A stretch of 64,000 nt of DNA from Fistulifera solaris (lineage: Eukaryota). Under the pieces are notes generated by a model, which had not been told where the DNA came from, made no database searches, and worked only from the letters and a program-made list of their open reading frames with translations. The position numbers and the translations under genes were made by a program. Position 1 is the first letter of the stretch; each line of letters starts with the position of its first letter. Where the stretch lies: positions 372,001 to 436,000 of the forward strand of contig AP026127.1 in assembly GCA_030295235.1 (NCBI GenBank). The letters run 5' to 3'. Shown here in pieces: positions 2,780-48,606 of this stretch.

Positions 2780-4157
2780 TCATTCCATCCATGCAGTGCC
2801 TTCTTTCGACCGTTGAACCATTATTTCTCCGATCATAACTAACGCTGCGGCAGCACGGATGCGGGCAACACTGGACGATATGACAAGACCACTTGAACCG
2901 ACCCATCCCTCTTGTTGACCAAAGAACATGCTACCTTCCAGTACCATATTACAAGCCTCGCGTACGGTACGATCGAGATCAATTTTACTGATTTTCCATA
3001 GAGCATCTACCTCCAGCGACTCGAGTATTGCTTGTTGAGCCTTTGCACGTTCCTCCCTACGCATATCATCTTCTTCGGGAGGCAAAAATCCTGCCAAACA
3101 CTCCGCGGGATCTCGATTTGTGAAAAAACCGCCTGGTGTCTCTCCTGATTCGTCATCCCCGTCCTCGGAGACAGATGCATCAAAGTCCTCGCCTTTATTC
3201 GCTTTTTTGGACGGTTTCAGATTTCGAAACTATGACTTTCCCGGTAGCGACAGCAGCTTGCATGACATGCCCTGCATGGCGCAAGCGGTCTCGTATACTA
3301 TCCGAGATAGTCACCAATGCCGGATTCGTGATCAACTTGGCTTTCGAAAAGGGCTGTTGATTGTCCATTCCGAAACTCTTTGGGTTCGCATGATATCGTC
3401 GCAACACTTTTCTCCCAGCGTAACGATACGCGCGTCCTATACAACGTATAATCTGAGCTCCCATGGGAAGCTTCTTGAGACGATCGCACTGTGTCACTAC
3501 TAGATCGGCCAAGAAAGCTTCATCGACAGACCCTTCTACCAAAGGACGGATCGTCCCTACAATGTTGTTGGCGATGAATTTGACTCGTTGATTGTGTTCT
3601 TGTTTATATCGAATTTGTTTGCCCACATCGGTAGTTTGAAAGTTGTCAATAGACGGCGGCGGCGGTGCGGAGTGATCTAAGGAATAACCCATCAAGTGTA
3701 AAAGTTCAATGAGATTGGGGTCTCTCCCAATGGCATCTTCAAAACGCCCCGTCAAAAGATAGACAGCGTGCACGGTATCCACCAATCCGAAGCGGTGGTA
3801 AGGAAGTCGAGTTTTATCCGTTTTTAGGACTTCGTACGCTTCTCGTATTCTTTCCAGTTGTTGTTCATTTTCAGCCCGATCCTCTTCGTCCTCATTCTTC
3901 TTGTTTCGTCGCTGCTTGTCGGGGTGATAGATTCGAGTTAGTTTTCGATACGACTTGGTAATTTGCGCAGCTGTAGCGTTGGGACTAACTTGAAGAATAT
4001 CATAAAGGGTTGTATCGTGGGGAGGCTGCTGCGCATACAAACGATGCATTCGTAGGAACGTGGAAGAAACGTCTGGCACTTTTTCCGCACGAATGCTCCA
4101 GTGAAAAACGATTTGAGCCAACAAGAGGAGAGATGATGCAATCAATCTGTTTGTCAT
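2780..4157 (-). CDS. DnaJ-domain protein with DnaJ-X-like C-terminal region; signal peptide; 1-bp frameshift near 3220
   Basis: J-domain 'LYDILQVSPNATAAQITKSYRKL...YHPDK...AYEVLK'; continues in ORF 2780..3097 ('ALWKISKIDLDRTVREAC...RAAAALVMIGEI') after a frame change. Confidence 0.85.
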
Positions 4158-4420: not shown

Positions 4421-4429
4421 GGTACAGTA

Positions 4430-7400
4430 CAGCCTCCCGTACATTTATACCACTTCTACGTCTTTCTACGTCTCGCTATACCAATTTGGTATGTTTTTCC
4501 AGAAATACTCGAAGTAGTTTCTGCGCTAATCTACTACTTTCCGGATAGTTCGGTGAGTATTTTTGGAAAAATATACCGCCAGGGTATAGCGGATGAAGAA
4601 ATACCAGTGCCGTTTCGAAAAGTACCACTATGGCGTGAAATGTAGGAAATTCGTGGGAATTCTTCAATCACTAGTAATACGTCTGCCGCATTTTCCTTGA
4701 CGAGCACAAAAATGAGCCATCACGAAGAAAGAAAACCATGAGAAAACCGACAAGTCGCCGCGGCAAGAACATCTACGCTAACATAAAGTCGTCCTTCGTC
4801 GCGAAAGATCCCACTGCTTCGCACTATCGTGATTGTGATGCATCTATACGATCTGCAGTGAAGTGGCTTTCGTGAGATTGTCGTAAGAATTCGATCGCCG
4901 AACCTTTTGCTGAAAAAGATATTGAATGAGAAAAGGCTCCCCAAAAAGTTTTTGCTTCAGAGATATCACTTCCTAAAAATACGCAGCAAAGCAAAATGTT
5001 GTTAGTACAATGCGTTTAAGCAGTGTAAAACAGTTTCTACGTGACATGAGGCGACTTTGATCGATCATCAGAACGAACGAAACAATTAAAACAGATCTAC
5101 GCAGGCTCGTGGAACTTCAGAACCACAATTTTGTGTGCCTTCCAGTATTTAAACTCTTCTCGAGAAATCGCACGAAGGTGGCAGTCGGGCACTTTTCCTT
5201 ACTCCAGATAGAGCTAAATGGTATTCTCGATAAAATCTTTTCAATAAGGAGGTGGTAACGTGTTTAGCATTCACTCACAGCGCTCTAGATGATCTTCTTT
5301 AGAATTTTTATTCTAGCTTAAGCATCTAACGACTGCCTTGTTTCAAGAATTTTCGGTGATGTAGTCGTCATGACATTTTATAAAAATTGGAGGTATAATT
5401 AAAGCGCACAAACGAGTTGAACGGTGGCCTTCAGACTTTAGATGTCGACATAGGCTTTGCCTAATCTTATGGAGTTACGATGCTATCGGCTTTTAGGGTC
5501 TAGCCTTTAAGAGACGGCCTAGACTAATGTTCATTCATCCTTATTATTTCTAGTGTGTAGGCATCGTTAGGGTTTCGGTTAAAAATCGTTTCGGTTGCAG
5601 TACAACCAAGTGCGTAGAAAATGCGTAGGAAATCCTATACCAACCGGCACTGCTTCTGGTATATTTTTCCTGCTCATTATACAGCCTCCCGTACATTTAT
5701 ACCACTTCTACGTCTTTCTACGTCTCGCTATACCAATTTGGTATGTTTTTCCAGAAATACTCGAAGTAGTTTCTGCGCTAATCTACTACTTTCCGGATAG
5801 TTCGGTGAGTATTTTTGGAAAAATATACCGCCAGGGTATAGCGGATGAAGAAATACCAGTGCCGTTTCGAAAAGTACCACTATGGCGTGAAATGTAGGAA
5901 ATTCGTGGGAATTCTTCAATCACTAGTAATACGTCTGCCGCGATTTTCCTTGACGAGCACAAAAATGAGCCATCACGAAGAAAGAAAACCATGAGAAAAC
6001 CGACAAGTCGTCGCGGCAAGAACATCTACGCTAACATAAAGTCGTCCTTCGTCGCGAAAGATCCCACTGCTTCGCACTATCGTGATTGTGATGCATCTAT
6101 ACGATCTGCAGTGAAGTGGCTTTCAGAGATTGTCGTAAGAATTCCGATCGCCGAACCTTTTGCTGAAAAAGATATTGAATGAGAAAAGGCTCCCCAAAAA
6201 GTTTTTGCTTCAGAGATATCACTTCCTAAAAATACGCAGCAAAGCAAAATGTTGTTAGTACAATGCGTTTAAGCAGTGTAAAACAGTTTCTACGTGACAT
6301 GAGGCTTTACTTTGATCGATCATCAGAACGAACGAAACAATTAAAACAGATCTACGCAGGCTCGTGGAACTTCAGAACCACAATTTTGTGTGCCTTCCAG
6401 TATTTAAACTCTTCTCAGAAATCGTACGAAGGTGGCAGTCGGGCACTTTTCCTTACTCCAGATAGAGCTAAATGGTATTCTCGACAAAATCTTTTCAATA
6501 AGGAGGTGGTAACGTGTTTAGCATTCACTCACAGCGCTCTAGATGATCTTCTTTAGAATTTTTATTCTAGCTTAAGCATCTAACGACTGCCTTGTTTCAA
6601 GAATTTTCGGTGATGTAGTCGCTTTTCGTCATGACATTTTATAAAAATTGGAGGTATAATTAAAGCACAAACGAGTTGAACGGTGGCCTTCAGACTTTAG
6701 ATGTCGACATAGGCTTTGCCTAATCTTATGGAGTTACGATGCTATCGGCTTTTAGGGTCTAGCCTTTAAGAGACGACAGCCTAGACTAATGTTCATTCAT
6801 CCTTATTATTTCTAGTGTGTAGGCATCGTTAGGGTTTCGGTTAAAAATCGTTTCGGTTGCAGTACAACCAAGTGCGTAGAAAATGCGTAGGAAATCCTAT
6901 ACCAACCGGCACTGCTTCTGGTATATTTTTCCTGCTCATTATACAGCCTCCCGTACATTTATACCACTTCTACGTCTTTCTACGTCTCGCTATACCAATT
7001 TGGTATGTTTTTCCAGAAATACTCGAAGTAGTTTCTGCGCTAATCTACTACTTTCCGGATAGTTCGGTGAGTATTTTTGGAAAAATATACCGCCAGGGTA
7101 TAGCGGATGAAGAAATACCAGTGCCGTTTCGAAAAGTACCACTATGGCGTGAAATGTAGGAAATTCGTGGGAATTCTTCAATCACTAGTAATACGTCTGC
7201 CGCGATTTTCCTTGACGAGCACAAAAATGAGCCATCACGAAGAAAGAAAACCATGAGAAAACCGACAAGTCGTCGCGGCAAGAACATCTACGCTAACATA
7301 AAGTCGTCCTTCGTCGCGAAAGATCCCACTGCTTCGCACTATCGTGATTGTGATGCATCTATACGATCTGCAGTGAAGTGGCTTTCGAGATTGTCGGTAA

Positions 7401-8198
7401 GAATTCCGATCGCCGAACCTTTTGCTGAAAAAGATATTGAATGAGAAAAGGCTCCCCAAAAGTTTTTGCTTCAGAGATATCACTTCCTAAAAATACGCAG
7501 CAAAGCAAAATGTTGTTAGTACAATGCGTTTAAGCAGTGTAAAACAGTTTCTACGTGACATGAGGCGAGTACTTTGATCGATCATCAGAACGAACGAAAC
7601 AATTAAAACAGATCTACGCAGGCTCGTGGAACTTCAGAACCACAATTTTGTGTGCCTTCCAGTATTTAAACTCTTCTCGAGAAATCGCACGAAGGTGGCA
7701 GTCGGGCACTTTTCCTTACTCCAGATAGAGCTAAATGGTATTCTCGATAAAATCTTTTCAATAAGGAGGTGGTAACGTGTTTAGCATTCACTCACAGCGC
7801 TCTAGATGATCTTCTTTAGAATTTTTATTCTAGCTTAAGCATCTAACGACTGCCTTGTTTCAAGAATTTTCGGTGATGTAGTCGTCATGACATTTTATAA
7901 AAATTGGAGGTATAATTAAAGCACAAACGAGTTGAACGGTGGCCTTCAGACTTTAGATGTCGACATAGGCTTTGCCTAATCTTATGGAGTTACGATGCTA
8001 TCGGCTTTTAGGGTCTAGCCTTTAAGAGACGACGCCCTAGACTAATGTTCATTCATCCTTATTATTTCTAGTGTGTAGGCATCGTTAGGGTTTCGGTTAA
8101 AATCGTTTCGGTTGCAGTACAACCAAGTGCGTAGAAAATGCGTAGGAAATCCTATACCAACCGGCACTGCTTCTGGTATATTTTTCCTGCTCATTATA
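4430..8198. mobile_element. Head-to-tail trimer of an unclassified ~1.26-kb putative non-autonomous element (units 4430-5681, 5682-6943, 6944-8198)
   Basis: Three near-identical units CAGCCTCCC...CTCATTATA joined without spacer; flanked by CAGTA (4425-4429, 8199-8203; extendable to TACAGTA); subterminal inverted repeats; no intact enzyme ORF. The repeat is certain, mobility is inferred. Confidence 0.7.
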
Positions 8199-8545
8199 CA
8201 GTATGACCTTACCAGTACGGTACCTGGTATGGACGCGTAAAAAAGCATTTACTGACACCAAGAAATTTCCACTATTGGTTTTATTGTACCTTTCTGTTTG
8301 GGCTGTGACACCGGTCATCGGTCATCGTAAAAGTGCAGCGGCACTTAAATCTGTACATAAAGATTCATTGTTGAAGAAGCCGGGGAAATTTTGCTTTTTT
8401 ACCCCAAATTCTCTCGTTTGAAACACCAACAAAACATTAGAACCCACGCCACATCCCTCCTTTTATCAATCTTTCGCACTTCCCTCGCAACAACACCGAC
8501 GAAAACGCTCATTCACTTCCTTCCTTGCCCCACAAACTCTTTTCA

Positions 8546-15512: not shown

Positions 15513-15780
15513 GGTTTCGATATGACAGCTAAAGATGAAGATCTTTATAGAATGAATGATGATTGCGTCAAATGGACGAAGATGCCGATGAGAAAAAGGA
15601 TCGGAAGAAGTGAGCAACGATGTCGAAATTGTGACGATTATTCCGGAGTTTTGGGGCAACGCCCGTAGGTCGTCCGAAAGATGACGTATCGTTGTCGTCT
15701 CAAGACTGACACTCGTTTCTTGAGATCAGAAGCGTACTTGTAGTGTTGCGTTTATTTGTTTGGGTTGCAACTAGACTAGC

Positions 15781-16410
15781 AACGTGAAAATACAACTGGT
15801 CCGGATTTTCCGGAGACGTGTAAGTACCACACGCCCAGATTTCCTAGGAACGTGAAAAGTGCAAATACCACTCACCCAGATTTTCTGGGAACGTGAAAAT
15901 ACATTGGTCCAGATTTTCTGGACTACTTGAAAATGCCAAACTCCCAGATTTTCAGGTAACGTGAAAATACATTGGTCCAGATTTTCTGGAGCAGCGTAAA
16001 TATTACAACCCAGATTTCCTGGGAACCTGAAAATACAGCTGGTCCAGATTTTCTGGACCACGTGTAAATATCACTCTCCCAGATTTCCTGAAAACTTGAA
16101 AATACATCTGGTCCAGATTTTTTGGACCATGTGTAAATATCACTCTTCCAGATTTCCTGGAAACTTAAAATACAGCTGGTCCAGATTGTCTGGACCAAAG
16201 TAAATGTTACACCCCCAGATTTCCTGGGAATGTGAAAATACCGCTGGTCCAGATTTTCTGGACTAACCTAAATATTACACCCCCAGATTTCCTGGGGATG
16301 TGAAAATACACTTGGTCCAGATTTTCTGGACCATTGTAAATACCACTCCCCCAGATTTCCTGGAAAGTTGAAAATACAGCTGGTCCAGATTTTCTGGACC
16401 CTAACGTGAA
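15781..16410. repeat. Palindromic tandem array: 18 cores at ~34-bp spacing, 68-bp higher-order dimer
   Basis: Alternating GGTCCAGA-TTT-TCTGGACC and CCCAG-ATTTC-CTGGG cores; exact 68-bp period at 16181/16249/16317/16385. Confidence 0.95.
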
Positions 16411-33081: not shown

Positions 33082-33743
33082 CGAGAGACGCAAAACGGAA
33101 CCCTTTATTGTTCGGTTCATGACTCATGACTACTGTACAATTCAGTCTTGGCTGGCTGGCGTAAACTAACACTCCATCTCATAGTGGAAATTCAAGTGCC
33201 GATCCTCGGACTTTCGACATGAAAATAAAAAAAGCTCTTAACAAGTAGTTCAGAATCACCATTGTTGCGACTTTTTCTACCCGTAATTACAATCATATTC
33301 GCAGTTGAACGACAGTGGACGGATACGAGAGACGCAAAACGGAACCCTTTGTTGTTCGGTTCATGACTCATGACTACTGTACAATTCAGTCTTGGCTGGC
33401 TGGCGTAAACCAACACTCCATCTCATAGTGGAAATTCAAGTGCCGATCCTCGGATTTTCGACATGAAAATAAAAAAAAGCTCTTAACAAGTAGTTCGGAA
33501 TCACCATTGTTGCGACTTTTTCTACCCGTAATTACAATCATATTCGCAGTTGAATGACAATGGACGGATGCGAGAGACGCAAAACGGAACCCTTTGTTGT
33601 TCGGTTCATGACTCATGACTACTGTACAATTCAGTCTTGGCTGGCGTAAACCAACACTCCATCTCATAGTGGAAATTCAAGTGCCGATCCTCGGATTTTC
33701 GACATGAAAATAAAAGAAACTTTTAACAAGTAGTTCAGAATCA
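33082..33743. repeat. Tandem repeat, ~244-bp unit x ~2.7
   Basis: Units start CGAGAGACGCAAAACGGAACC at 33082, 33326, 33571. Confidence 0.95.
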
Positions 33744-34517
33744 TCAAAACAGAAACTACAAAATACGAAAGGGTTGCAAGCTTCGACGAATGGACTTCAC
33801 GCCCTTGATCTTTTCGGTAGCTGAACTGTTGAGTAAACCAGCCGTTGAAGCGTCCCGCAGGCTTGCTCCTATTCTTTCCGTAAAAGGGAACGATCTTATC
33901 TGGATACATGTGGTTATGTGCGTTCTCGTTTGAGCATTTCTCTTGCTCGATCTGCGAGTATGCTCATCCGAACTCCCCGACAAAGAGAAACTGTTCGCTC
34001 CTCCGACTTGGCAAGATGGACGTGGCTTGGTTCTTTACTAGGCTCCACCCAACAACATGATGTCGACAAACTACTCCAGAAGGAGCATACTTTTCACTCA
34101 GCAACTATCACTATCATCCATTATATGTTATGGTAACAAAAAGCTTACCAGGTACGATGACACGACAATTCCTACACGGGATTCATCAATTGACTCATGA
34201 CCATCCAAGATCCTAGCTCGTTTCTCACTTATGCGCATCGGTACTCAGTCTCTAAGTAAAAAATTATCCGTTACATGCTACGTAATTATTTGTTGTACAG
34301 TAGACCTTAGACTAGGTCTAGTCACATCATGTCACATCCGTTTTCAAAAAAATAATATTGTCCTTATTGCATGACGGAACCACACCGTCACCAACCACAA
34401 ACTTCTCGCTTCTCGCTCTCATTACATTGCTAGAGAGTCTACTGGTATAAAATTGCGCAATTTTTCAATCTTTCCTTTCCAATCGCAACGTTCGTGCATA
34501 GAAGGATTCAGTGAATT

Positions 34518-37411: not shown

Positions 37412-39960
37412 CTATAATTCCATCGCATTTTTCGACAGAGTGTCAAACATGAAATCGTAAGCAAGAGCCGTCATGAAAGCCGATTGTTTTGCATCAGCGG
37501 CCCCTCCATGTCCGCCTTCAATATTTTCGTAGTAGTAGACCGGTAGCTTACCATTGCTTCCATCCATTAGCTTCTTCACAAATTTCCGTGCGTGAGCGGG
37601 ATGTACCCTATCATCGCGAGTACTTGTCGTGACTAGTATAGGCGGGTACTCTGTTCCTTCTTTGATATCTGCAACACATCATTAATGTCAGTTTTCATAA
37701 AGCATCACGCCGGCCACAAGAAGATGGGACTTACTGTGATAAGGAGAATACTTCTGTAAGAACTCCCAGTCGTCCGTATCAGGATTGCCATACTCAGCCA
37801 TCCAGCTTGCCCCAGCTAAGAGAGTGTGAAATCGTTTCATGTCCCTGATGCAATGGAAAAGAAGAATGGTGAGTATCGATCCGCTAATGCGGACCCTAGC
37901 AATGACAAAAAACTTACAGTAAGGGTACAGCGCAATGAATGGCGCCAAACAAATCAGGGCGCATGGTGTACATGTTGCCCACCAATAGTCCACCCTGCAA
38001 AAAATCAACCGTGGTTAGGATTGTGAAATCGGTACAGAGGGTCTTTGAGCTTACCGCAACTTACATTAGAGCCACCCCGAACTGCAAGTGTCTTCGGACT
38101 ACAAACCTTCGTTTCAATTAGATGCTCTCCCACTGCAATAAAGTCTTCATAGCATTTGTTGCGGTTTGCTTTGAGACCGGCTTGATGCCAGGACGGACCG
38201 AACTCACCGCCACCACGAATGTTGGCTTCCACATAAACACCACCCCGCTCCAACCAAGCCACACCCTGTGTCGCAACATAGTGAGGACCCAGAGAGACTT
38301 CAAAACCACCGTAACCGTACAGTAAAGTTGGATTTTTCCCGTTTAGAACGGTATCCTCCTTTCGAACAATGAAGTACGGAATTTGTGTACCATCTTTACT
38401 AGTTGCCGTACATTGAGAAACAACTAGACCCGAGGCGTCAAATTGTGGTGGCAAAGATTTGACATGTTCGACAATAAACGCATCCGACTCGCCGTTTGTT
38501 GTTTCCATTCTAGAAGCGTCCGCCAGGAAAAGAGTACTAGGCGTGACAAAGTCGCTCGTGGTAAACCAAAATTCATCGCTACCCGAATACGGATCGATCG
38601 GACGAATTCCAACGTCCCGGATCTGCGCCTCTTGGGAGCCGCCTTCTATCAATGTCAACCGACTGCCACCATCCTCGATTTTGTAGAACTGAAGCCTTGA
38701 TTTCACGTTGTCCATTGTGGATAAAATGAGATAATTTTTGGTTACCGAGTAGTACTCATAGGCGGTGCGTTCGGTGGGCTCAAACAAGATTTTGTACTCG
38801 CACCCTGTTCGCCCTTTTTGAAGGAATGTTTCCGCATCCGTGTAGATGACAGATCCCTTCTTGTACACCGGTCCGCCTACAACAGGCTCCCAGTCAGAAC
38901 GAAGCGTAATTACCAAAAGCTTTCCTAAAAACGAAATGTTGGCATCATCCTGAACGTCCAGTTCCACAAAATCCGGCGGATCCGACACATACGGTCCACG
39001 TTCGTCGGGCGCCAGTAGATGCTCAAATTGCACGGAGCGTACAAAATATTTGGATGTATAGAACGTCATGGCGCGCGAGTACACTTCGTAGATGCCACCT
39101 CCCCAAATTCGTTCGTCACTAATGAAAGCCGAAACCGAAACGTCCGTCGTTTCACCTTCAAACACCACCTTGGCATCGGTGAGGAGGTCCGTGCCACGCA
39201 CCCATTCACGGACCGTTCGGGGATACCCACTGTCGGTTAACGAATCGGGACCTGTATCGGTACCTACTAGTAGTACATTGCGACTCTTGTAGCTCACACG
39301 CGACTTTGCTTCCGGCAATTGGAAGGGTTGGTCGGTCACAAAGTCGTTGGTGGTCAAATCGAATTCTTTCACATGCGTAGCATCCGATCCTCCGCGGCTC
39401 AGAACAATCAAAGCGCGAGTGACACGATCTTTGGAGTACACGGGATCTCTGGATCGAGGCAATGGCCGACTGCCGCCCCACACCCAACTAATTCCATCTT
39501 TCTCCGCCAAGGCATCGACATCCAAAACGGTAGTCCATTCGATATCGGACGTTTTCTTGTACGAAGACAAAGTCGTGTACCGCCATAATCCCTTGGGATT
39601 CTTGGCGTCTTTCCAAAAGTTGAACAAAATGGGTTCTCCGTCGTCATTGACGCCAAAGTGAGTCACGTGGGGAATGCGATCGTCGGATTCGAGAATTTGG
39701 AGGACACGCGCGTAAGTGCCTTTCTCTTCGGGGTTCCCCAAAGCCGCCAAGCAAGCGGCATTCGCGGATCGCGCGAAATCGAGTGATTGCTCCGACTCGA
39801 CTTCCTCCAACCAAATGTAAGGGTCTTCCGCTGTAGATACAGTAGTAGTAGACATGCTGCGAAATAATGGAGAAAGGAAGGGGCGATGACGGGCAAGGAA
39901 CGAGACCGACGGACGACTGAGTAAGGATAAGCTGAGTACCAGGCGCGAGAAGATTAGCAT
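37412..39960 (-). CDS. Prolyl oligopeptidase (S9A) with N-terminal targeting sequence; three 3' introns
   Basis: DPYIWLE, LLYGYGGF, NIRGGGEFG, GGSN|GG (catalytic Ser across intron 37995-38064), STRDDRVHP, EGGHGG; stop at 37412. Confidence 0.93.
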
Positions 39961-40207
39961 GGGTAAGGTATTCACGCAGCCTTGGTTCTTTAAGTGATAA
40001 GGAACCAAATGGACTTGCCAGTAAATAGATTGGGATGAAAAGCGATGATGCGAAAAAAAAGATCGCAGAAAGCATCGGATTGCCCGCGAAAATAAGGAAC
40101 GCATTCTTCACAAAGTACCTCTAGTGGCTCATTCGGTATCATTCACCTAAATAAGGAATAAGCTATACGTACAAGTAGTATCAAAAGATGAATGGTATAG
40201 AACAGAA

Positions 40208-40295
40208 CGAAATAAGGCAGTGGTGTAAAATTATGACTACAAGTGTTACATCTACCACGGAGGCTTCCCCGTCTGTACTACACTCGGTTATTTCG
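40208..40295 (-). repeat. 3' LTR (88 bp; termini CGAAATAA...TTATTTCG)
   Basis: Exact direct repeat of 46926-47013. Confidence 0.93.
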
Positions 40296-40305
40296 GTCCC
40301 CTCAC
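40296..40305 (-). other. Putative polypurine tract
   Basis: Minus strand GTGAGGGGAC immediately before the 3' LTR. Confidence 0.6.
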
Positions 40306-40596
40306 GATGAGACCCGAGCTAGGGCTTCAACGTGTCCTTCATAACCGATAAACCCTTATTTCATGGAAAAACAACATAAAAACCATGACGATTCATTCAT
40401 CGAATCCATCCTTCATCATGTGGAAAATACATCAAAACCACACATCGACTTGTCCGTGGAAAATACGTCAAAACCACGTATCAAACTTGAAACTTCAATC
40501 ACTGTACCTGGACGAAAAACTTATCCCCAGGAGGCTCATCCCATCGGAATAGTAAACATAACTACCCAACCAGTGCATCGGGACCTATCGCCTGCA

Positions 40597-43500
40597 TCAC
40601 TGATGTAAAATACGCTTCACCAGTGGATCTCGTACATTCCCAGCTTGAATCTTCGTCAGAATATCTGCCAAATTCGTCTTCGTAGGCTCGTAGGATACAT
40701 CAACAATACCCATCGCAACTCGCTCACGTACATAGTGATATGCCACCGAATTGGACTTCTTCTTCAGAACTGATTCAGGAATACTCGAGTTCTTGATCAC
40801 CGACATATTGTCACCTTTGACAACCGCAGGATCTTCTACCGGCACACCCATCATCTGTAGTTTGTACCGTAGACCTTCGATTAACTCGACCGCCGTTTTC
40901 ATAGCACTAAACTCAGCACCAAATGTCGACGTCTCAATCAAGTTTGCTTCTTGCTGTACCATACTGTCAATGACCTGTTCAAATAGACCAAGACACCTGT
41001 ACGGAACGACGAGTAACATGGTCACCCGCCAAGTCAGCATCAACGAAACACGTTATTTGCACAGGCTTACCCAATGGCTTTGGACAATCCGTTGGAATCA
41101 TAGGCTTAGCATCTCGGTAAAAGTCATTCCAATCAGGTCTAGGTTGTCTGGCGTGCTCGACATACGAAGGATCGAACACAATCTTAGACCTTTCGTGTGA
41201 CCTCAAATATGCAAAGACATGCACAACCGCAGCTAGATGGCCTTTCCTTGGCATCGCACTGTGAGACGCAAGCATCGAAACTTCACCACAAATATCAACT
41301 CTTCCAAGCTCGACCATCCAGCGTAAAACCCCTATCTGCGAGTGATAAAACTGGATTTCGTCGTCATCGCACTCCGGCGATATGTCAAGCTCCTCGGACG
41401 GTACTTCGGTGGTAAAACACTTGACGCCTTCTTCGGTAAAGCCTCATCTCGCTTTTCCAACCAAAGACAAACGTTTCGTATTGCTTCCTTCACATATTCA
41501 TTCGAACTCATCGACCAACAAGGCTTTTCATCACCCGGGAATTGATGCTGACCAATCGTCGAACCCAAGTAGCGAGTTGGCTTGCCTATCGAACCTTCTT
41601 TCAGAAGAAAGTGTTGATCAAGCTTGTATAGAATAGCTTCCGGCGCCACAGAAACACACAGGATGTCATCCGTATAGACCAATACCAACTCGTAGTAACT
41701 AGTCCCATCCGCTTTCTGTGCCGGCCGTATCCATACATCGTTATCCCATTTCGACAAGGTGTAAAACTCAACGACTCATGCAAACACTCACTCAGATATG
41801 ACCTCCACGCAGCTCCAGAACTCTTCAGTCCGTGAAGAGCTTTCACGATTTTCGACCTTTGAACTGTGGACCAAATTCGGCACCGCAAATAATAAAGATT
41901 CGCTCTCGAACTGGTGCATTCAAGTACGCATTTCCAATATCTGCCGCCATAATGTCCAAATCGTTCAATGCCGCGAAGTAGGAAGGCAATCCGCACGCTT
42001 TCTCTCGATTCAACACTAGCATAGGTAATCGAGCTCGGCGGATCCGTCATGTGTCCCCCCTGCTACGAGGGCGGGCCTTCCGTGTGAAATCTGGTTTTAT
42101 ATCAAAAACCATGTGAACCCCAATCTTGGTAAAACCAGCAGGATCGGGAGCGTCTTCGTCAAGGATCTGAAACGCCTTAGCTACCGCGACGCATCTCTTC
42201 GCGAATCGCCGCCCCAAAAGTCAGTTCCCGTGAGCGATCAATCGCCAATGCTTCTTCGACTGTCTTTGGCAATGCGATCCCATATTTCTGAGTAACACGA
42301 AAGTAGCGCTTAGCCATCGCTTTGATGATCCTGGTCCTTCTCTTGAGCGTGTAGGGAACCCACCATGAGAAAGCAGGCTCCTCAGCAATCTGTCTCGCAA
42401 CAGCAAATTCAGCTAACTGTAAAGGGTGAGACTGCTTTAGGTCTTTCAGTTTCTCCCAAGTAGTAGTGCCATCATTCCATAGACAACACAGCTTCCATCC
42501 CTTGGTAGTCCGCTTAGGATACTTTCGGTTGTTGTGGATCACGAATGCCTCTTCATGCCGGAACCGCGTCGACTCTTTCTTGTAGTCCACTATTTCCTTT
42601 AGGACATAACTCGCACGCCCATGGTCATCCACTTCGGCATAGATGGCTTCAGCGATCTGATTCGCATGATAAGCCTCCACTTCACCCGTATCAAATTCAA
42701 TCTCATACAGAGCGGTATCGAGCAAAGGGTTAGGATGGTACCGGCCAATAGGATTCCCGTCTTGATCGTGCTTCCGACCTTTAACCGCATCGTACGACAT
42801 CGAAAGTCCCCTTGCGGAAGCATTACCCTTGCTGAGACATATTGATTGTATGAATCGTAATCAAACTCATCAGCTTCCTTTATCTCGGGAACTTCGGGAT
42901 CTTGCGACCGGTCGGAACATAGTATTCCAACTCTGGGGTGCGCTCGTCTTCCGGTATCTCGGTCGGATCCAAGGGCATGGCTCGGTCCTTCAGCTTTTGC
43001 TCCAACGTCATGCGTGAACTTTGCCTTCAACTCAGCAACGGCTTGGCTATTCTGTTCCTCAACTGACAAAGGGAAAACACTTGTACGGGAAATCGGTCGA
43101 CCAGAAGCGGGTAGGATCCTAGCACATAGGACATCACCGACATCGAAACTGGGACCAAGGTATCTTCCAAGATGCTTCCTTTCCATATTTTCGTCTTGAG
43201 GCGAGATAAACCAAACCCAATCATACCAACCGAACTCACAAATGTGTGAAATATCAGCGGTGTCCCCTGTCAAAAGCGTCATGCGGCACTTCACCATCTA
43301 ACTGTCTTATGGAAAGACAAGAGTGGCTCCGAACATACGCGTGGTAGACCAAACATAGGTCCCATAGACAACGTGGGGAATTCGTGCGAATCATAGCACG
43401 CCCTATACATCCTTTTCAATTCACGAATGCCGTCTTCAGCGAGGGTTGGCGTTAGCGGTGTGCTTCGATCGGCCTAATGGTCGCTTGCACTCGCTATGCC

Positions 43501-46042
43501 TCTTCGCTTAAACTCTCCTGCTGTCAACTCTCCGGCATTGTCCGGAATTAAAGTGTTAGGGACTCCGACGCTGACGAAACAAGTTGTCAAGCGTGTAATG
43601 GGCATCGCTTTTCTTTTCAATCGGGTCCACACATATCCAGTGAAAGGGGGTGCAATACACAGCCGCATATTTGTTACCCAGCAGTGAGACACATGTACCG
43701 ACCAGAATGTCGCAGTACATCTCCGTATTAAGCCGAGGATAACGCAGCTGGTACGCCAAATGGTTTGAGACGGCGCGTTCCAGAGACTGTCGAGAAGTCC
43801 CGAATTGCCCGTTCGCTGGAATCATCCCTATACTCCATCGTTTTGCCAAATCTTCGGGTGTGACATATGCTTTCCGGTTCTTCGTTGAGATTGCGGCACT
43901 TGTAAGCGAAGCAGCATACGAATCGATGTCAAAAGCTGCCGAACCGCGCTCAGCTGAAATCACAGCAATCGAACGAGCTGGCGGGACAAGCGTGCGCTCA
44001 CTCGTAACCGAACCAAGCATCCTCTGTCCCCCCTAAAACGAAGCTCAGAGTCAAGGGAAACACGCAATGAGTCCTCATCATGCTGGCGTGGTTAGAATCC
44101 ATAGGATCCCAGAACGACTTCGGAGGTGACGTTTACATGGATGCAGTCAACGTCCGAGCTCAGTTCTTTGTCGGTCGGTCGGCGAAAGTGGGGAAATATG
44201 AAATAGTCCCCATCAGTTTCAAAGGAATCTGGAGAGCTGGCTCAGAAAACAAAATAGAATGGCTCTCCGGGCGACGCGTTGTTCCGGGAGGTAGGTGTAG
44301 GAGAGGAGTTTCATTCACAACGACTTGGTTGTGCCGGGGTTGAGCGGGGCTGATCAAGTGTCGATGCATGTTTGAAAAGTAGAGTGACTGGTGAAAGAAC
44401 AAAACGTGGGTTTGCAGCGTCGTGGGGCAATCGTATGCAACCGCAACTGTACCAATGGGAACTTTGGTCACTTTCCCAAGAGAACTAATGAATGGTTCCA
44501 CCGAAACTGTTTCACGGGTATCATACACGAGAACCGCGTCTTTACCGAACGAGCAAGTATCACAGTGCGAGTCCAATTCAGCTCTACCAGGAGTCTGTTG
44601 TCGCATTGCCGCCGCGAACTCGCTGCACCGCCAGTCAAGGTCGTCGACTCATGCGGTTACCTGTCGACTCAACCACATCGTCACTATCGGAGTCAGCCGT
44701 CTCAACAGCTGAAGCATTTCGCGTTTCGGACTTAGCCCTTTCACGAGCATTGCGAACTTCTTCCTGTTTCTCTTTCGGTAACTTGATCCACTCCTTCCAT
44801 TTGTAGTACGGGACACCATCTTTGCCTCTCTTTGCTTTTCCGCCCTTTCCTTTACCAGATTTGCCGCCACCTTTCTTGTTGTTACCGCCGCCAGAATTTC
44901 TGGTAACCGAAGAAATGTTGCGAGTGGAACCACGGGTCTTTGCTGCATCTTGCTTCTTTCTATCAACCTGCTCAGCCAAGTAGTTCATCGCGCTCGAAGG
45001 TACTTTCCAACACAGCATCAGCCCGGACGCGCTCGACGCTCATCTTTAGTTCATCTGCCCAGATGTTGTCTAGAAAGATTCGCACCTTCCTATCTTCAGT
45101 CATCACCTCACCCGCCTCTTCCAAGTCCAAGAAAGCCAAGTTAAGCTTCTGACAGTAGTCTTCAAAGGTAAAGTTACGCCTTTCCATCATAGAAGACTGT
45201 CGAAAGGACTCGGTCAGCATGAGCAATGTTGCGCTTCTGATAAGAACGCCCCATATAGTGAGTCTTCAAGGCAAAATAAGCGGCGTCCATCTTTGCTGTA
45301 AGCAAAAGGCTTAACCCAATTCCAAGCTGGTCCACCGTGTGAAACCTGACGAATAACGCTCCACAGCATCATATTGTCTTCTTCATACTGGTCTCCATCA
45401 TGGCGAAAGTCGACGAACAAGTTCCGACATAGCATCAGGGACACCGAAACCTGGATCATCAACCCCTTCGATTCCATCGGGATCGACATGCTCCCGCACA
45501 AGGTACGACAAAGGCGCACCATAAGCTCCAAGGTGATTGCCAAGTACCTCGTCGATGTCTTCAATCGTCTTCCGAGCGTTTTCCACCTTCAACAACACAT
45601 CGATCTTAGGAAGATCTTTGTTGGTCTCACGCATGCGACGAATGCGCCACGCGAAAGTCCAAGCGCTGCTCCAATCGAGCAAGAGTTGCAAAGCCAGGAA
45701 CAAACTCGCTGCAAGCGGTGCAAGTGGAAAAGGAAGTAGCGAAGCTGACGAACACGGAGCTCAAGATTGACTCCGATCGCAATACCACGGTTCGGAATCA
45801 TCGCAGGTACCATCGGTGCAGCCTCCGCTCCAACCGCAGGAGGGACAAAGGCTGGGTTTGGAATCAAACCCCCAGGGTTTCGAATCTTCGTAAAGATCTC
45901 CTGAACGTACTTATCACTCCGGTGCGTCAAGTCGTCAAACGCTGGTAATGCCTTGGCCATTGATGGCCTGACGAGCTGCCGCATCCTCAATAAAGAGGAC
46001 ATCACGGAGGTAGTTGTTGAATGCAGCAAGATTGGCTGCCAT
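40597..46042 (-). pseudogene. gag-pol polyprotein, heavily frameshifted in this consensus
   Basis: Starts MAANLAAFNNYLRDVL at 46042, ends ...VKRILHQ* at 40597; fragments spread over many minus-strand ORFs. Confidence 0.88.
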
Positions 46043-46910
46043 CGTAAACAAGGAGAAAGGAGAGAAAGTTCACAAATCGGAATGCTAGGAGATAAAAACG
46101 TAAACGACGTTTTCTTTTCTTTTTGTGTGCGAAACTGCATCGTCGCTAAAACGTTTGCACGAAATTCCGACCCCTTTACTCTCCCCTTCGAGAGTGTTGT
46201 TTACTGTAGGGAACTCCAGTGTAAAGCGCCAAAAGTGCCCTTATGTACGTAAGGCCATTGTACACACTAGGCCCTACAGAACAATCGTCCACACCCTCAT
46301 TTAGCTCTGAATCCGTTCATAGTCAAAAAGACAGATCGGCCTAAACAGTATAGAACACGACCTCGGACAGGCCAAAATACACGCACAACACGATTTCACT
46401 TGCGCAACTTCTCGCGAAATCCGACGATGTTGTGCTTTGACCGCCTCTGGAGGAAAAACATCCCTCCACCATGAGGACTTCGCAACAATCGGGTGAATAA
46501 TTCACTCATTTATGTATTCTAGCATTAAAGGTGTATTAGCATGTATACGAGGCGTCCCCCATATTTTACCGACAAGTGACATAATCACTGTGGTCCGATG
46601 CATCCATCGACAGAGCCAGAACTGTCAATAAAGGAAAGCAACGGTGCTTCATAAGCGCTAATTACCTCACAAACCCAGCCATCTAATCAAGACATATGAT
46701 TAACATGATGACTCCATGGGGTCGACCTTTACATAAGGTCATGATCTCACATTTTCATGTGGACAATTGTCGACTTCCGACAACGCCGAGATCATCTCCT
46801 TGACCACTCAAGCCCAACAGTTAGTAACACATACATAAGGAACATTACTCTTACGATATTACCATTGTTTTCCTGTGTATTTCATCGTTTCAGAGGGATT
46901 CATCGCGAAA

Positions 46911-46925
46911 CCCCGGTTTTTAACC
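46911..46925 (-). other. Putative primer-binding site GGTTAAAAACCGGGG (half-tRNA-Lys(UUU) type)
   Basis: Directly follows the 5' LTR; its complement reads GG-UUUUUAA-CC, the geometry of an anticodon loop. Confidence 0.55.
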
Positions 46926-47013
46926 CGAAATAAGGCAGTGGTGTAAAATTATGACTACAAGTGTTACATCTACCACGGAGGCTTCCCCGTCTGTACTACA
47001 CTCGGTTATTTCG
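46926..47013 (-). repeat. 5' LTR (88 bp)
   Basis: Exact direct repeat of 40208-40295. Confidence 0.93.
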
Positions 47014-47152
47014 AGAAAGTATCGTCCGGTACTACAAATGGCTATGTACCCGAAAGGATAAAAATGCTGCAGATTATGAAGATTTTGATGCACTCTCGAA
47101 AGTCTATGCAGTAGTTACCAGTATTGATTAGATGAACACAAATGATTCCAGC

Positions 47153-48294
47153 TCACTCATCTTCCAACCCCAAAAGCTTGGCCGTCACCGGAGGCGATGG
47201 CACTATACCCGAAGGATTCAGCGGAAACAATTGCGCAAAGTACGAGGCACAGGCATCCGCGAGATCAATCGATTGCGACACCGCCGGATGTTCCTTCCAA
47301 CAACGTTGGAGCCACACGTGGAGATGTGGATAATCCCGGATCCGCGTATGACCTCCGGCGGCGCGAAACAAGGGTGCGTAAGCACCGTCGAATCGCACAA
47401 TGGTGGGAAGCAACCGCAAGTCGGCCACTGTGAATTGGTCACCGCACAAGTAGCGATTCGACGACAAGATGCGATTGCAACGATCCAGACCTTCTCGAAC
47501 ATCCGACGACGCCTGGTTGTATGCACTTTGCGTAGTAGCAAAGCCACACCGATACACTCCATTGTTGATTAAATTGTAGACCCAATCATTGATTTCATCG
47601 ACTTCTCGTCGTTTCTCTTCTGGATACAAATTTTTGGGACTATCCACTCCGTGCTTCTTTTGTGCCGCATCATTCAGGAGCTGTACAATTTCACTCGATT
47701 CATTGGATACAATCGTTTGACTTCGTACATTGACGAGCAAAGGAGCCGTACAACGACCTTGGAATCCGGGCGACAATGTTTCGTACAGTTCTCGCAAATC
47801 ACGACACCCTCCAAACAGACGATCGGGTTGTGTTGCGGAAAAATCCATCCTCCACGACTGGCTTGTTTCGGATTCTCTTGAAGCCGAGTCACCGATATTC
47901 TATCGTCCAGTTGCAGATACAACAGTGCGAGGAGTGTCCGCTGACACCAGGGACACGGGTTCCCTACGTACAAATGATAAGTACCCTGCTCCAAATCCAA
48001 AGGCGGTGCGGAAGAGAACGAATACGATGGTCGTTGGTAATTGCCCTTATCATCTTGGGGTGCCAATTCGACCATCATGGTCTTCCACGCCAGTTTCCAA
48101 GATTCAGATACCGTTTGTACTATGACACCTTGCGGTACGAGACCTCCTGCCAATTCCAATAGATTGAATCCCTTGTTGAGTTTTTCAGCCAGCAGACGAG
48201 TTTGTCTCGAACGATGATTCGGGTGGACGAGAAAGGCTTGACACCAAGATCCGACAAGGAGAGTTGCGCCGAGCAAAGAAATTCTGTTTCTCAT
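47153..48294 (-). CDS. Glutathionyl-hydroquinone reductase / omega-like GST (YqjG/ECM4 family), predicted plastid-targeted; frameshift ~47840
   Basis: YHLYVGNPCPWCQR, IVSNESSEI, INNGVYRCGFATTQ, ADLRLLPTIVRFD, NPSGIVP; signal peptide CQA|F. Confidence 0.9.
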
Positions 48295-48606
48295 GACTAC
48301 AGCGTACCGGCCTTTTTGCTACGCGCTTGAAATGCAATGAAACGTGCCTGGAATAACAGAAACACTTATGTGAAGATTATTGCTGATAGAATGATAAGAA
48401 TGAATAAGGAAGGTAGCAGCGATCATGCGATTTCCGTTTTTGTGAGAAAAAGACGTTCAACGCTACACTTTATAGCATAGTAACTAGAAAGATTTTCTAC
48501 TCCGTAATATTTTATTTTTTGATGCGACGATAATCCGACGCGACGAGCGGGCCTTTTCATCGTCATATCTCTTGGCGTTTCATTACAATATTATGCATAT
48601 TTCACA

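Follow-up and report, generated by a model that had tools for sequence, protein, structure and literature searches.

A Copia-type LTR retrotransposon of Fistulifera solaris with CG...CG termini, 88-bp repeats and a 4-bp target-site duplication

A conserved CA-3' end is a near-rule for integrases of the retroviral type, and annotation pipelines rely on it. A stretch of 64,000 nucleotides (nt) of the diatom Fistulifera solaris (GenBank assembly GCA_030295235.1, contig AP026127.1, positions 372,001 to 436,000 of the forward strand; hereafter "the window") raises the question of whether a long terminal repeat (LTR) retrotransposon can depart from this rule at both of its ends and, if so, whether its integrase has to have changed as well. 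A preliminary description of this locus had reported a Copia element with CG...CG LTR termini, 88-bp LTRs and a target-site duplication (TSD) of 4 bp, and had ascribed these features to an integrase with altered end recognition and stagger. In our reading, which we hold with good confidence, positions 40208–47013 constitute a full-length Ty1/copia-type element of the diatom CoDi kind, nearest in architecture to the CoDi3/CoDi4 (Blackbeard-like) elements, with genuine CG..CG ends, a cutting stagger of 4 bp that is normal for its group, and an end recognition that is tolerant.

The limits of the element are given by a direct repeat of 88 nt, which is 100% identical in its two copies at 40208–40295 and 46926–47013 (spacing 6718) and encloses, together with the interior, 6,806 bp. 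The element lies on the minus strand, and hence the copy at 46926–47013 is the 5' LTR and that at 40208–40295 the 3' LTR, reading CG...CG on either strand. Since the inner neighbours of the two copies are unlike (GTCC after the left one, AACC before the right one), the repeat is no longer than 88 bp. Each LTR is bounded by a terminal inverted repeat of 8 bp (CGAAATAA/TTATTTCG), and all four LTR ends read CG in place of the usual TG..CA. On the outside, both LTRs are adjoined by AGAA, at 40204–40207 on the 3' side and at 47014–47017 on the 5' side of the element (..ACAGAA followed by CGAAATAAGG at the left junction, ..GGTTATTTCG followed by AGAAAG at the right one); four flanking bases would agree at random in about 1 of 256 cases. 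The duplication of 5 bp that is typical of Ty1/copia does not fit these flanks (CAGAA vs AGAAA). The locus, thus described, has the paired LTRs around a coding interior and the flanking TSD, from one insertion, of an LTR retrotransposon, and the exact repeat, the inverted repeat, the AGAA flanks and the lack of a five-base fit are all as the preliminary description had them. When up to three mismatches are allowed, each LTR end is present exactly twice in the window, where shuffled sequences lead one to expect 0.00 occurrences, and neither a third LTR copy nor a solo LTR was found there at this tolerance. A second copy of the polyprotein is likewise absent from the window, all 32 tblastn high-scoring segment pairs falling inside the element.

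Whether the CG ends are those of the element, or of a boundary drawn in the wrong place, can be judged from its relatives. A scan of genome contigs with a 19-sequence polyprotein alignment returned 17 related loci (L001–L017), all of them on contigs of records labelled as bacterial metagenome-assembled genomes (Sphingobacteriaceae, Gloeobacterales, Desulfocapsaceae and others), which we infer to be eukaryotic retrotransposon contamination binned into bacterial genomes. In the window element, a polypurine tract ending in ..GAGGGGAC (GTGAGGGGAC on the minus strand, 40296–40305) touches the 3' LTR, and the bases GGGGAC are kept at 13 of 13 junctions downstream of the polyprotein, namely in 12 of the loci and in the window. 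In the window, the direct repeat sets in immediately behind GGGGAC, and this validates the use of the tract as a mark for the LTR start. What follows the tract is TG at 11 of 13 junctions; the other two, those of the window element and of L007, have CG. At the opposite end, the LTRs of seven loci (L004, L006, L008, L009, L010, L011 and L013) close with CA and are directly followed by the conserved sequence GTTTATCAGACCCA, while the LTR of L015 has the same CA end followed by unrelated sequence, and this provides an independent check of the end against L013. Altogether, the relatives are TG..CA in 8 of 8 cases (these seven and L015), with LTRs of 181–308 bp whose starts were inferred from the conserved polypurine tract and whose ends were inferred from the conserved primer site, not from LTR pairs. 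Two of these loci, L006 and L008, are cyclic assemblies that hold one LTR plus the internal region, in units of 6612 and 6623 bp. Given that relatives read TG..CA at the homologous junctions, CG..CG is a derived state and not a boundary error, and the claim of CG...CG termini is upheld.

The second CG junction, that of L007 (10028–10160, CG directly after GGGGAC), belongs to a distant relative, the best segment of which is 36% identical to the query polyprotein P0001. The end of its LTR is less sharply defined: a 5-bp inverted match lies at 32 nt, which is implausibly short, and comparison with the LTR tail of L009 would put the end near 124–126 nt, with 17 of 1000 shuffles scoring as well and with ..TC vs ..CG as the terminal bases left undistinguished. 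The first 6 kb of the L007 locus are GC-rich and bacterial-looking, so that this may be a chimeric contig.

Next to the 5' LTR, where LTR retrotransposons carry a primer-binding site, the window element has the putative site GGTTAAAAACCGGGG (minus strand, 46911–46925), whereas the seven relatives have GTTTATCAGACCCA in that place; neither begins with TGG, and the motif of the window is absent from all 17 related loci. The short LTR and the different primer site together set the element apart as a separate sub-lineage. The complement of either primer site can be written as five stem bases, seven loop bases and two further bases, the candidate loop carrying UUU in the window element and GAU in the relatives, and the initiator-Met anticodon in neither. 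Each complement, hence, has the look of an anticodon arm truncated two bases beyond its loop, a pattern which suggests that priming may be by tRNA fragments. Drosophila copia is primed by an internal tRNA fragment, and the likeness would consist in a primer-site complement shaped like a primer that ends inside the anticodon arm; the loops UUU and GAU set the present elements apart from it, neither of them being the initiator-Met anticodon.

Reverse transcriptases (RTs) of the Ty1/copia type are described by the RVT_2 family (PF07727), and the order integrase, RT, RNase H is that of Copia elements. A 147-residue RT fragment of the window has 59 homologues listed at E <= 0.001, nearly all with PF07727, and the best among those listed are proteins of 1346–1348 residues that are 77–81% identical to it (P0001, 81%). 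RVT_2 itself was recognized through the relatives, with P0001, P0011 and the second open reading frame (ORF2) of L008 scoring 55–60 bits (P0001, 55.1) against a cut-off of 31.6. A frameshift-aware alignment to residues 3–1348 of P0001, an intact relative, traces pol along 40597–44612 of the minus strand as far as a stop codon at 40597–40599; the 1322 aligned codons are 85.3% identical, and between them the frame changes 28 times, while no in-frame stop interrupts them. In the direction of transcription, pol comprises the integrase catalytic core at 43437–43713, a linker, the RT at 41547–42127 (the equivalent of the RVT_2 match at residues 839–1033 of P0001, with YTDD near 41676) and an RNase H region at 40602–41074, recognized by its motifs (FVDAD.. 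/ ..IETSTFGAEF ..ADILTK). All catalytic motifs, i.e., MYCD, IPDN, LAED, YTDD and those of RNase H, are retained in the window copy. The assignment to the Copia type is, therefore, borne out by the RVT_2 relatives and by the order of the pol domains, and the present analysis adds the minus strand.

The integrase is represented by an aspartate in MYCD, an aspartate in IPDN and a glutamate in LAED, with D-35-E spacing; these motifs are the same in P0001, and D..D-35-E is invariant upstream of the RT in alignments of 19 and 33 relatives. The AlphaFold model of a relative, P0006 (mean pLDDT 78.1), has a beta-beta-beta-alpha-beta-alpha RNase-H-like core before the RT. As the rve match in ORF2 of L008 is sub-threshold (E=0.007) and the 50 matches listed in a structure search with the P0006 model were all RTs, with the integrase fold not among them, the integrase call draws on motif and topology. 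A search of PDB sequences with the family profile gave a best E of 0.087 and nothing relevant. The one hint of a protease is the motif LDSH.D, conserved close to where pol begins (residues 8–20 of P0001, position ~44597 of the window, where the copy reads LDSHCD), which is not the usual D-S/T-G.

Directly upstream of the pol frame, a TGA occupies 44649–44651, and it is preceded by a gag-like ORF1 region (44652–46140) that is spread over at least four frame pieces, is weakly similar to the ORF1 of both L006 and L008, and belongs to no Pfam family. In L008 and L006, ORF1 (468 and 494 residues, no Pfam family) and ORF2 (pol) stand in the same frame with a single TGA between them (2321–2323 and 3160–3162, respectively), and this arrangement, with its counterpart in the window, suggests that gag-pol may be made through stop-codon read-through. 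The remainder of the interior would be a leader of ~0.8 kb from the primer-binding site to the first long ATG ORF (46141–46910, inferred from its position) and a 3' untranslated region of ~0.3 kb (40306–40596) which holds a 36-nt direct repeat at 40420–40483.

How far these features are peculiar to the window element can be gauged from the 84 full-length elements of Phaeodactylum tricornutum in Table S11 of Filloramo et al. (2021, PMC8147415), and from the Thalassiosira pseudonana elements in Table S10 of the same work. In Table S11, TSDs of 4 bp are given in all 20 of the TSD-listing rows of CoDi3.1, 3.2, 3.2-like, 4.1, 4.2 and 4.3, while those of CoDi1, 2, 5 and 6 are mostly 5 bp; in Table S10, CoDi4.5 has 4 bp in 7 of 7 rows. 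For Blackbeard, a TSD of TTCC and an LTR of 163 bp are stated in the excerpted text of Maumus et al. (2009, PMC2806351). A 4-bp TSD is, thus, the norm of CoDi3/CoDi4, and the altered stagger that had been proposed for the window element falls away. Ends other than TG..CA are also on record, comprising TACA/TGTA in CoDi3.2, TATA in CoDi4.2 and 4.3 (one row TTCG), TGTA in one row of CoDi4.4 and TGAG in CoDi6.4 (PMC8147415); according to PMC2806351, 3 of 26 families lack TG/CA, and LTRs range from 153 to 844 bp. To the question, raised in the preliminary description, of whether described CoDi families already share the features of the element, the tables of PMC8147415 give a divided answer: the 4-bp TSD and ends other than TG..CA are shared, while CG..CG occurs in no tabulated row of Tables S10 and S11, an LTR below 112 bp occurs in neither table, and "CGCG" is in none of the 13 supplementary files searched (of 14). 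Searches of the literature likewise brought up neither CG..CG ends nor an autonomous Copia element with LTRs below 100 bp; this absence is weak evidence, as a dinucleotide motif is not a searchable word. What appears to be new, then, are the CG..CG ends and the shortest LTR among tabulated diatom elements, whereas the 4-bp TSD and non-TG..CA ends as such are already published.

The CoDi-like label is plausible on the basis of architecture and of the names of Atlas clusters near P0001; the nearest cluster carries the automatic name "Blackbeard family protein" (0.99), and a second one is assigned to Bacillariophyta. With regard to architecture, the element has the 4-bp TSD, a length within the ~6.3–7.7 kb, and the symmetric non-TG..CA ends of CoDi3/CoDi4-type elements, in which short LTRs are frequent, although its own, at 88 bp, lies below the published range.

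On this basis, a mechanism may be proposed. Read along the minus strand, the element is ordered as 5' LTR, putative primer site, leader, gag-like ORF1, TGA, pol, 3' untranslated region, polypurine tract and 3' LTR. The two ends of the complementary DNA (cDNA) would be set by priming of the plus strand at GGGGAC and of the minus strand at the primer site, and the RNA template would supply the U3 start from a 3' LTR and the U5 end from a 5' LTR. Since the C and G are carried by 4 of 4 LTR ends, the changes would already have been present in the RNA template and not have been acquired after insertion. The integrase would then have inserted this cDNA with the group-normal stagger of 4 bp, joining ..CG-3'OH instead of ..CA-3'OH. 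The ends have changed symmetrically, and the terminal step is still pyrimidine-purine (TG/CA, TA/TA, CG/CG), which argues for a tolerant pyrimidine-purine recognition and not for a re-tooled integrase.

The 28 frame changes in pol bear on both the age of the copy and the reliability of its bases. At 21 of the 28 sites, a CpG lies within 4 nt, where 11.2 would be expected and none of 5000 random draws reached 21; homopolymers were ruled out as the cause. CpG methylation of LTR elements of P. tricornutum is described in the excerpt of PMC2806351, and the frame changes are probably indel errors of long-read assembly at methylated CpG, so that the copy itself may in reality be both intact and young. 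Post-insertional decay of pol by mutation was considered and rejected, given that 28 indels, no stops and identical LTRs misfit, by our estimate, the ratio of substitutions to indels. As the apparent breakage is probably an assembly error, it cannot be used against a recent insertion, for which only the 88 identical LTR bases would speak. The same likely errors near CpG weaken slightly all claims about exact bases, and each LTR contains five CpG, both termini included. More generally, methylated transposons that look "decayed" in long-read assemblies may owe this appearance to basecalling error.

Among the alternatives, the one that survives best, though we consider it unlikely, is that of a one-off within a TG..CA family, in which a source copy with T>C at the U3 start and A>G at the U5 end was tolerated once by an unchanged integrase. 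The single copy in the window, the TG at 11 of the 13 related tract junctions and the catalytic motifs identical to those of P0001 are all compatible with it. It requires, however, two independent changes, one at each end, which mirror each other exactly and lengthen a perfect inverted repeat of 8 bp; moreover, the primer site and the LTR length also differ from those of the relatives, pointing to a separate lineage, the LTR of the distant relative L007 starts with CG after GGGGAC as well, and published kin have other symmetric non-TG..CA ends as family traits (PMC8147415). That the integrase of this lineage came to differ both in the ends that it recognizes and in its cutting stagger, as the preliminary description supposed, appears improbable to us. 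It would account for the CG..CG ends and the 4-bp TSD, and integrase divergence has been argued for Rosaceae TG..TT elements in the excerpted part of PMC5659011; the stagger, on the other hand, is common to the TG..CA families CoDi3.1, 4.1 and 4.5 (PMC8147415, Tables S10 and S11) and is, therefore, not linked to the end change, and no integrase residue difference was tied to the ends. That terminal bases, the LTR length or a junction base were miscalled, and that the true ends are canonical and/or the TSD is 5 bp, is very improbable, even if the CpG-clustered, stop-free frame changes of pol and an apparent frameshift in the neighbouring glutathione S-transferase (GST) gene make assembly indel errors likely and both LTR termini count among the CpG, for all four ends read CG despite unlike outer contexts (flank, polypurine tract, primer-binding site, flank), the two LTRs do not differ from each other, methylated CpG should, by our reasoning, lose CG calls through error and not gain them from TG or CA, and the 4-bp TSD matches the closest published groups (PMC8147415).

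For an element with genuine CG..CG ends, group-normal stagger and tolerant recognition, several points nonetheless count on the other side of the balance. The ends and the TSD length come from one insertion, a single copy having been seen, and those of the relatives were not taken from LTR pairs, only L013/L015 checking an end independently. Pfam searches with 13 ORF fragments of the window gave no match at E<=0.01, and with seven of them at E<=10 only RVT_2 (E=0.16); the integrase is backed only by its motif, its topology and a sub-threshold rve match. Scans for tRNA genes returned none in the window or in L006, L007, L008 and L012, and the primer is putative. Finally, if indel errors occurred at CpG, the true LTR could be longer or shorter by one or two bases, and a C lost at the right junction (..TTTCG followed by AGAAAG) would hide a 5-bp TSD, CAGAA. 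The empty allele should read ATAGAACAGAAAGTATCG, and a TSD of 4 bp is told apart from one of 5 bp only by the base at the right junction.

A more far-reaching interpretation, which we put forward tentatively and regard as possible at best, is that of a diatom Copia sub-lineage in which both ends have moved to CG..CG, with an integrase joining a 3' G, a primer site switched to another tRNA fragment and an LTR shrunk to 88 bp, and of which an intact, active copy sits ~100 bp upstream of a gene, while finders filter such elements out. With a single copy seen, a CG..CG trait shared across the lineage and a change in the integrase are both unproven. If the interpretation is true, a gene-proximal share of the active retrotransposons in diatom genomes may have gone uncounted. 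A clean natural CG-3' insertion, in a group that also has TA..TA ends and a 4-bp stagger, would mean that this integrase family may need only a symmetric pyrimidine-purine step, and end recognition could be tested with the element as a natural substrate. In practical terms, gene-proximal elements of diatoms are under-counted by finders left at their defaults (LTR of at least 100 bp, fixed motif list, TSD of 5 bp); the expectation that the element would be missed by finders set to LTRs of at least 100 bp, or to TG..CA plus the seven motifs listed in the excerpted text of the plant survey (10.1101/137141), is supported.

The element occupies a spacer of ~240 bp (40104–40208 plus 47013–47153) between two host genes and lies on the same strand as both. 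Downstream of it is a gene of the prolyl oligopeptidase family (38005–40104, minus strand, assigned by its Atlas family), the ATG of which follows 104 bp after the 3' LTR in the same orientation, so that read-out from the LTR into this gene, or disruption of its promoter, is possible. On the upstream side, the GST gene (47153–48318, minus strand) ends 136 bp before the TSD and 140 bp before the 5' LTR; it is read in two frames with a switch near 47850, GST_N_2 and GST_C_2 lying in separate, overlapping frames that leave no room for an intron, and this reflects either a frameshift of the host gene or another assembly indel. Elsewhere in the window, a tandem unit of ~1.26 kb is present in three copies at 4428–8201, an array of 68-nt units spans 15776–16399, and repeats of ~245 nt are found at 33082–33746.

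Comparison with known systems places the element between several groups. Its TG..CA relatives (L004, L006, L008–L011, L013 and L015), whose polyproteins are 36–61% identical to P0001 in the best tblastn segment, share with it the ..GGGGAC tract and the primer site touching the LTRs, the organization ORF1-TGA-ORF2 and a unit of ~6.6 kb; they differ in their LTRs of 181–308 bp and the primer site GTTTATCAGACCCA, as against 88 bp, CG..CG and GGTTAAAAACCGGGG in the window. CoDi4.1 and 4.5 have the 4-bp TSD in common with the element and depart from it in their TG..CA ends. Among plants, the excerpted text of the survey 10.1101/137141 describes seven types of non-TG..CA motifs, found mostly in Copia elements with markedly shorter LTRs that lie near genes, and calls the first terminal base, T, the only invariable one. 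Such elements, including Tos17 (TG..GA), AtRE1 (TA..TA), TARE1 (TA..CA) and the TGTT/AACA families (10.1101/137141 and PMC5659011, both as excerpted), resemble the window element in being mostly Copia, in their short LTRs and in their proximity to genes, but have 5-bp TSDs, unrelated hosts and a first base T, where the window element has C. Blackbeard invites a direct match, and its published primers have none in the window. That Blackbeard itself ends in CG, as its outward LTR primer does, was considered and rejected, since a primer may stop short of the terminus, and TA..TA is what the tables list for families with LTRs of 163 bp. The closest resemblance is to CoDi4.2/CoDi4.3 and Blackbeard (PMC8147415 and the excerpt of PMC2806351), CoDi4.2–4.4 being 6.5–6.8 kb long with LTRs of 112–167 bp in PMC8147415. 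In contrast to the CG..CG and 88 bp of the window element, the ends of CoDi4.2/CoDi4.3 and Blackbeard are TA..TA and their LTRs 150–167 bp; alike are the Copia gene order, the length of 6.5–6.8 kb, the 4-bp TSD, the insertions near genes, and the combination of short LTRs with symmetric ends other than TG..CA.

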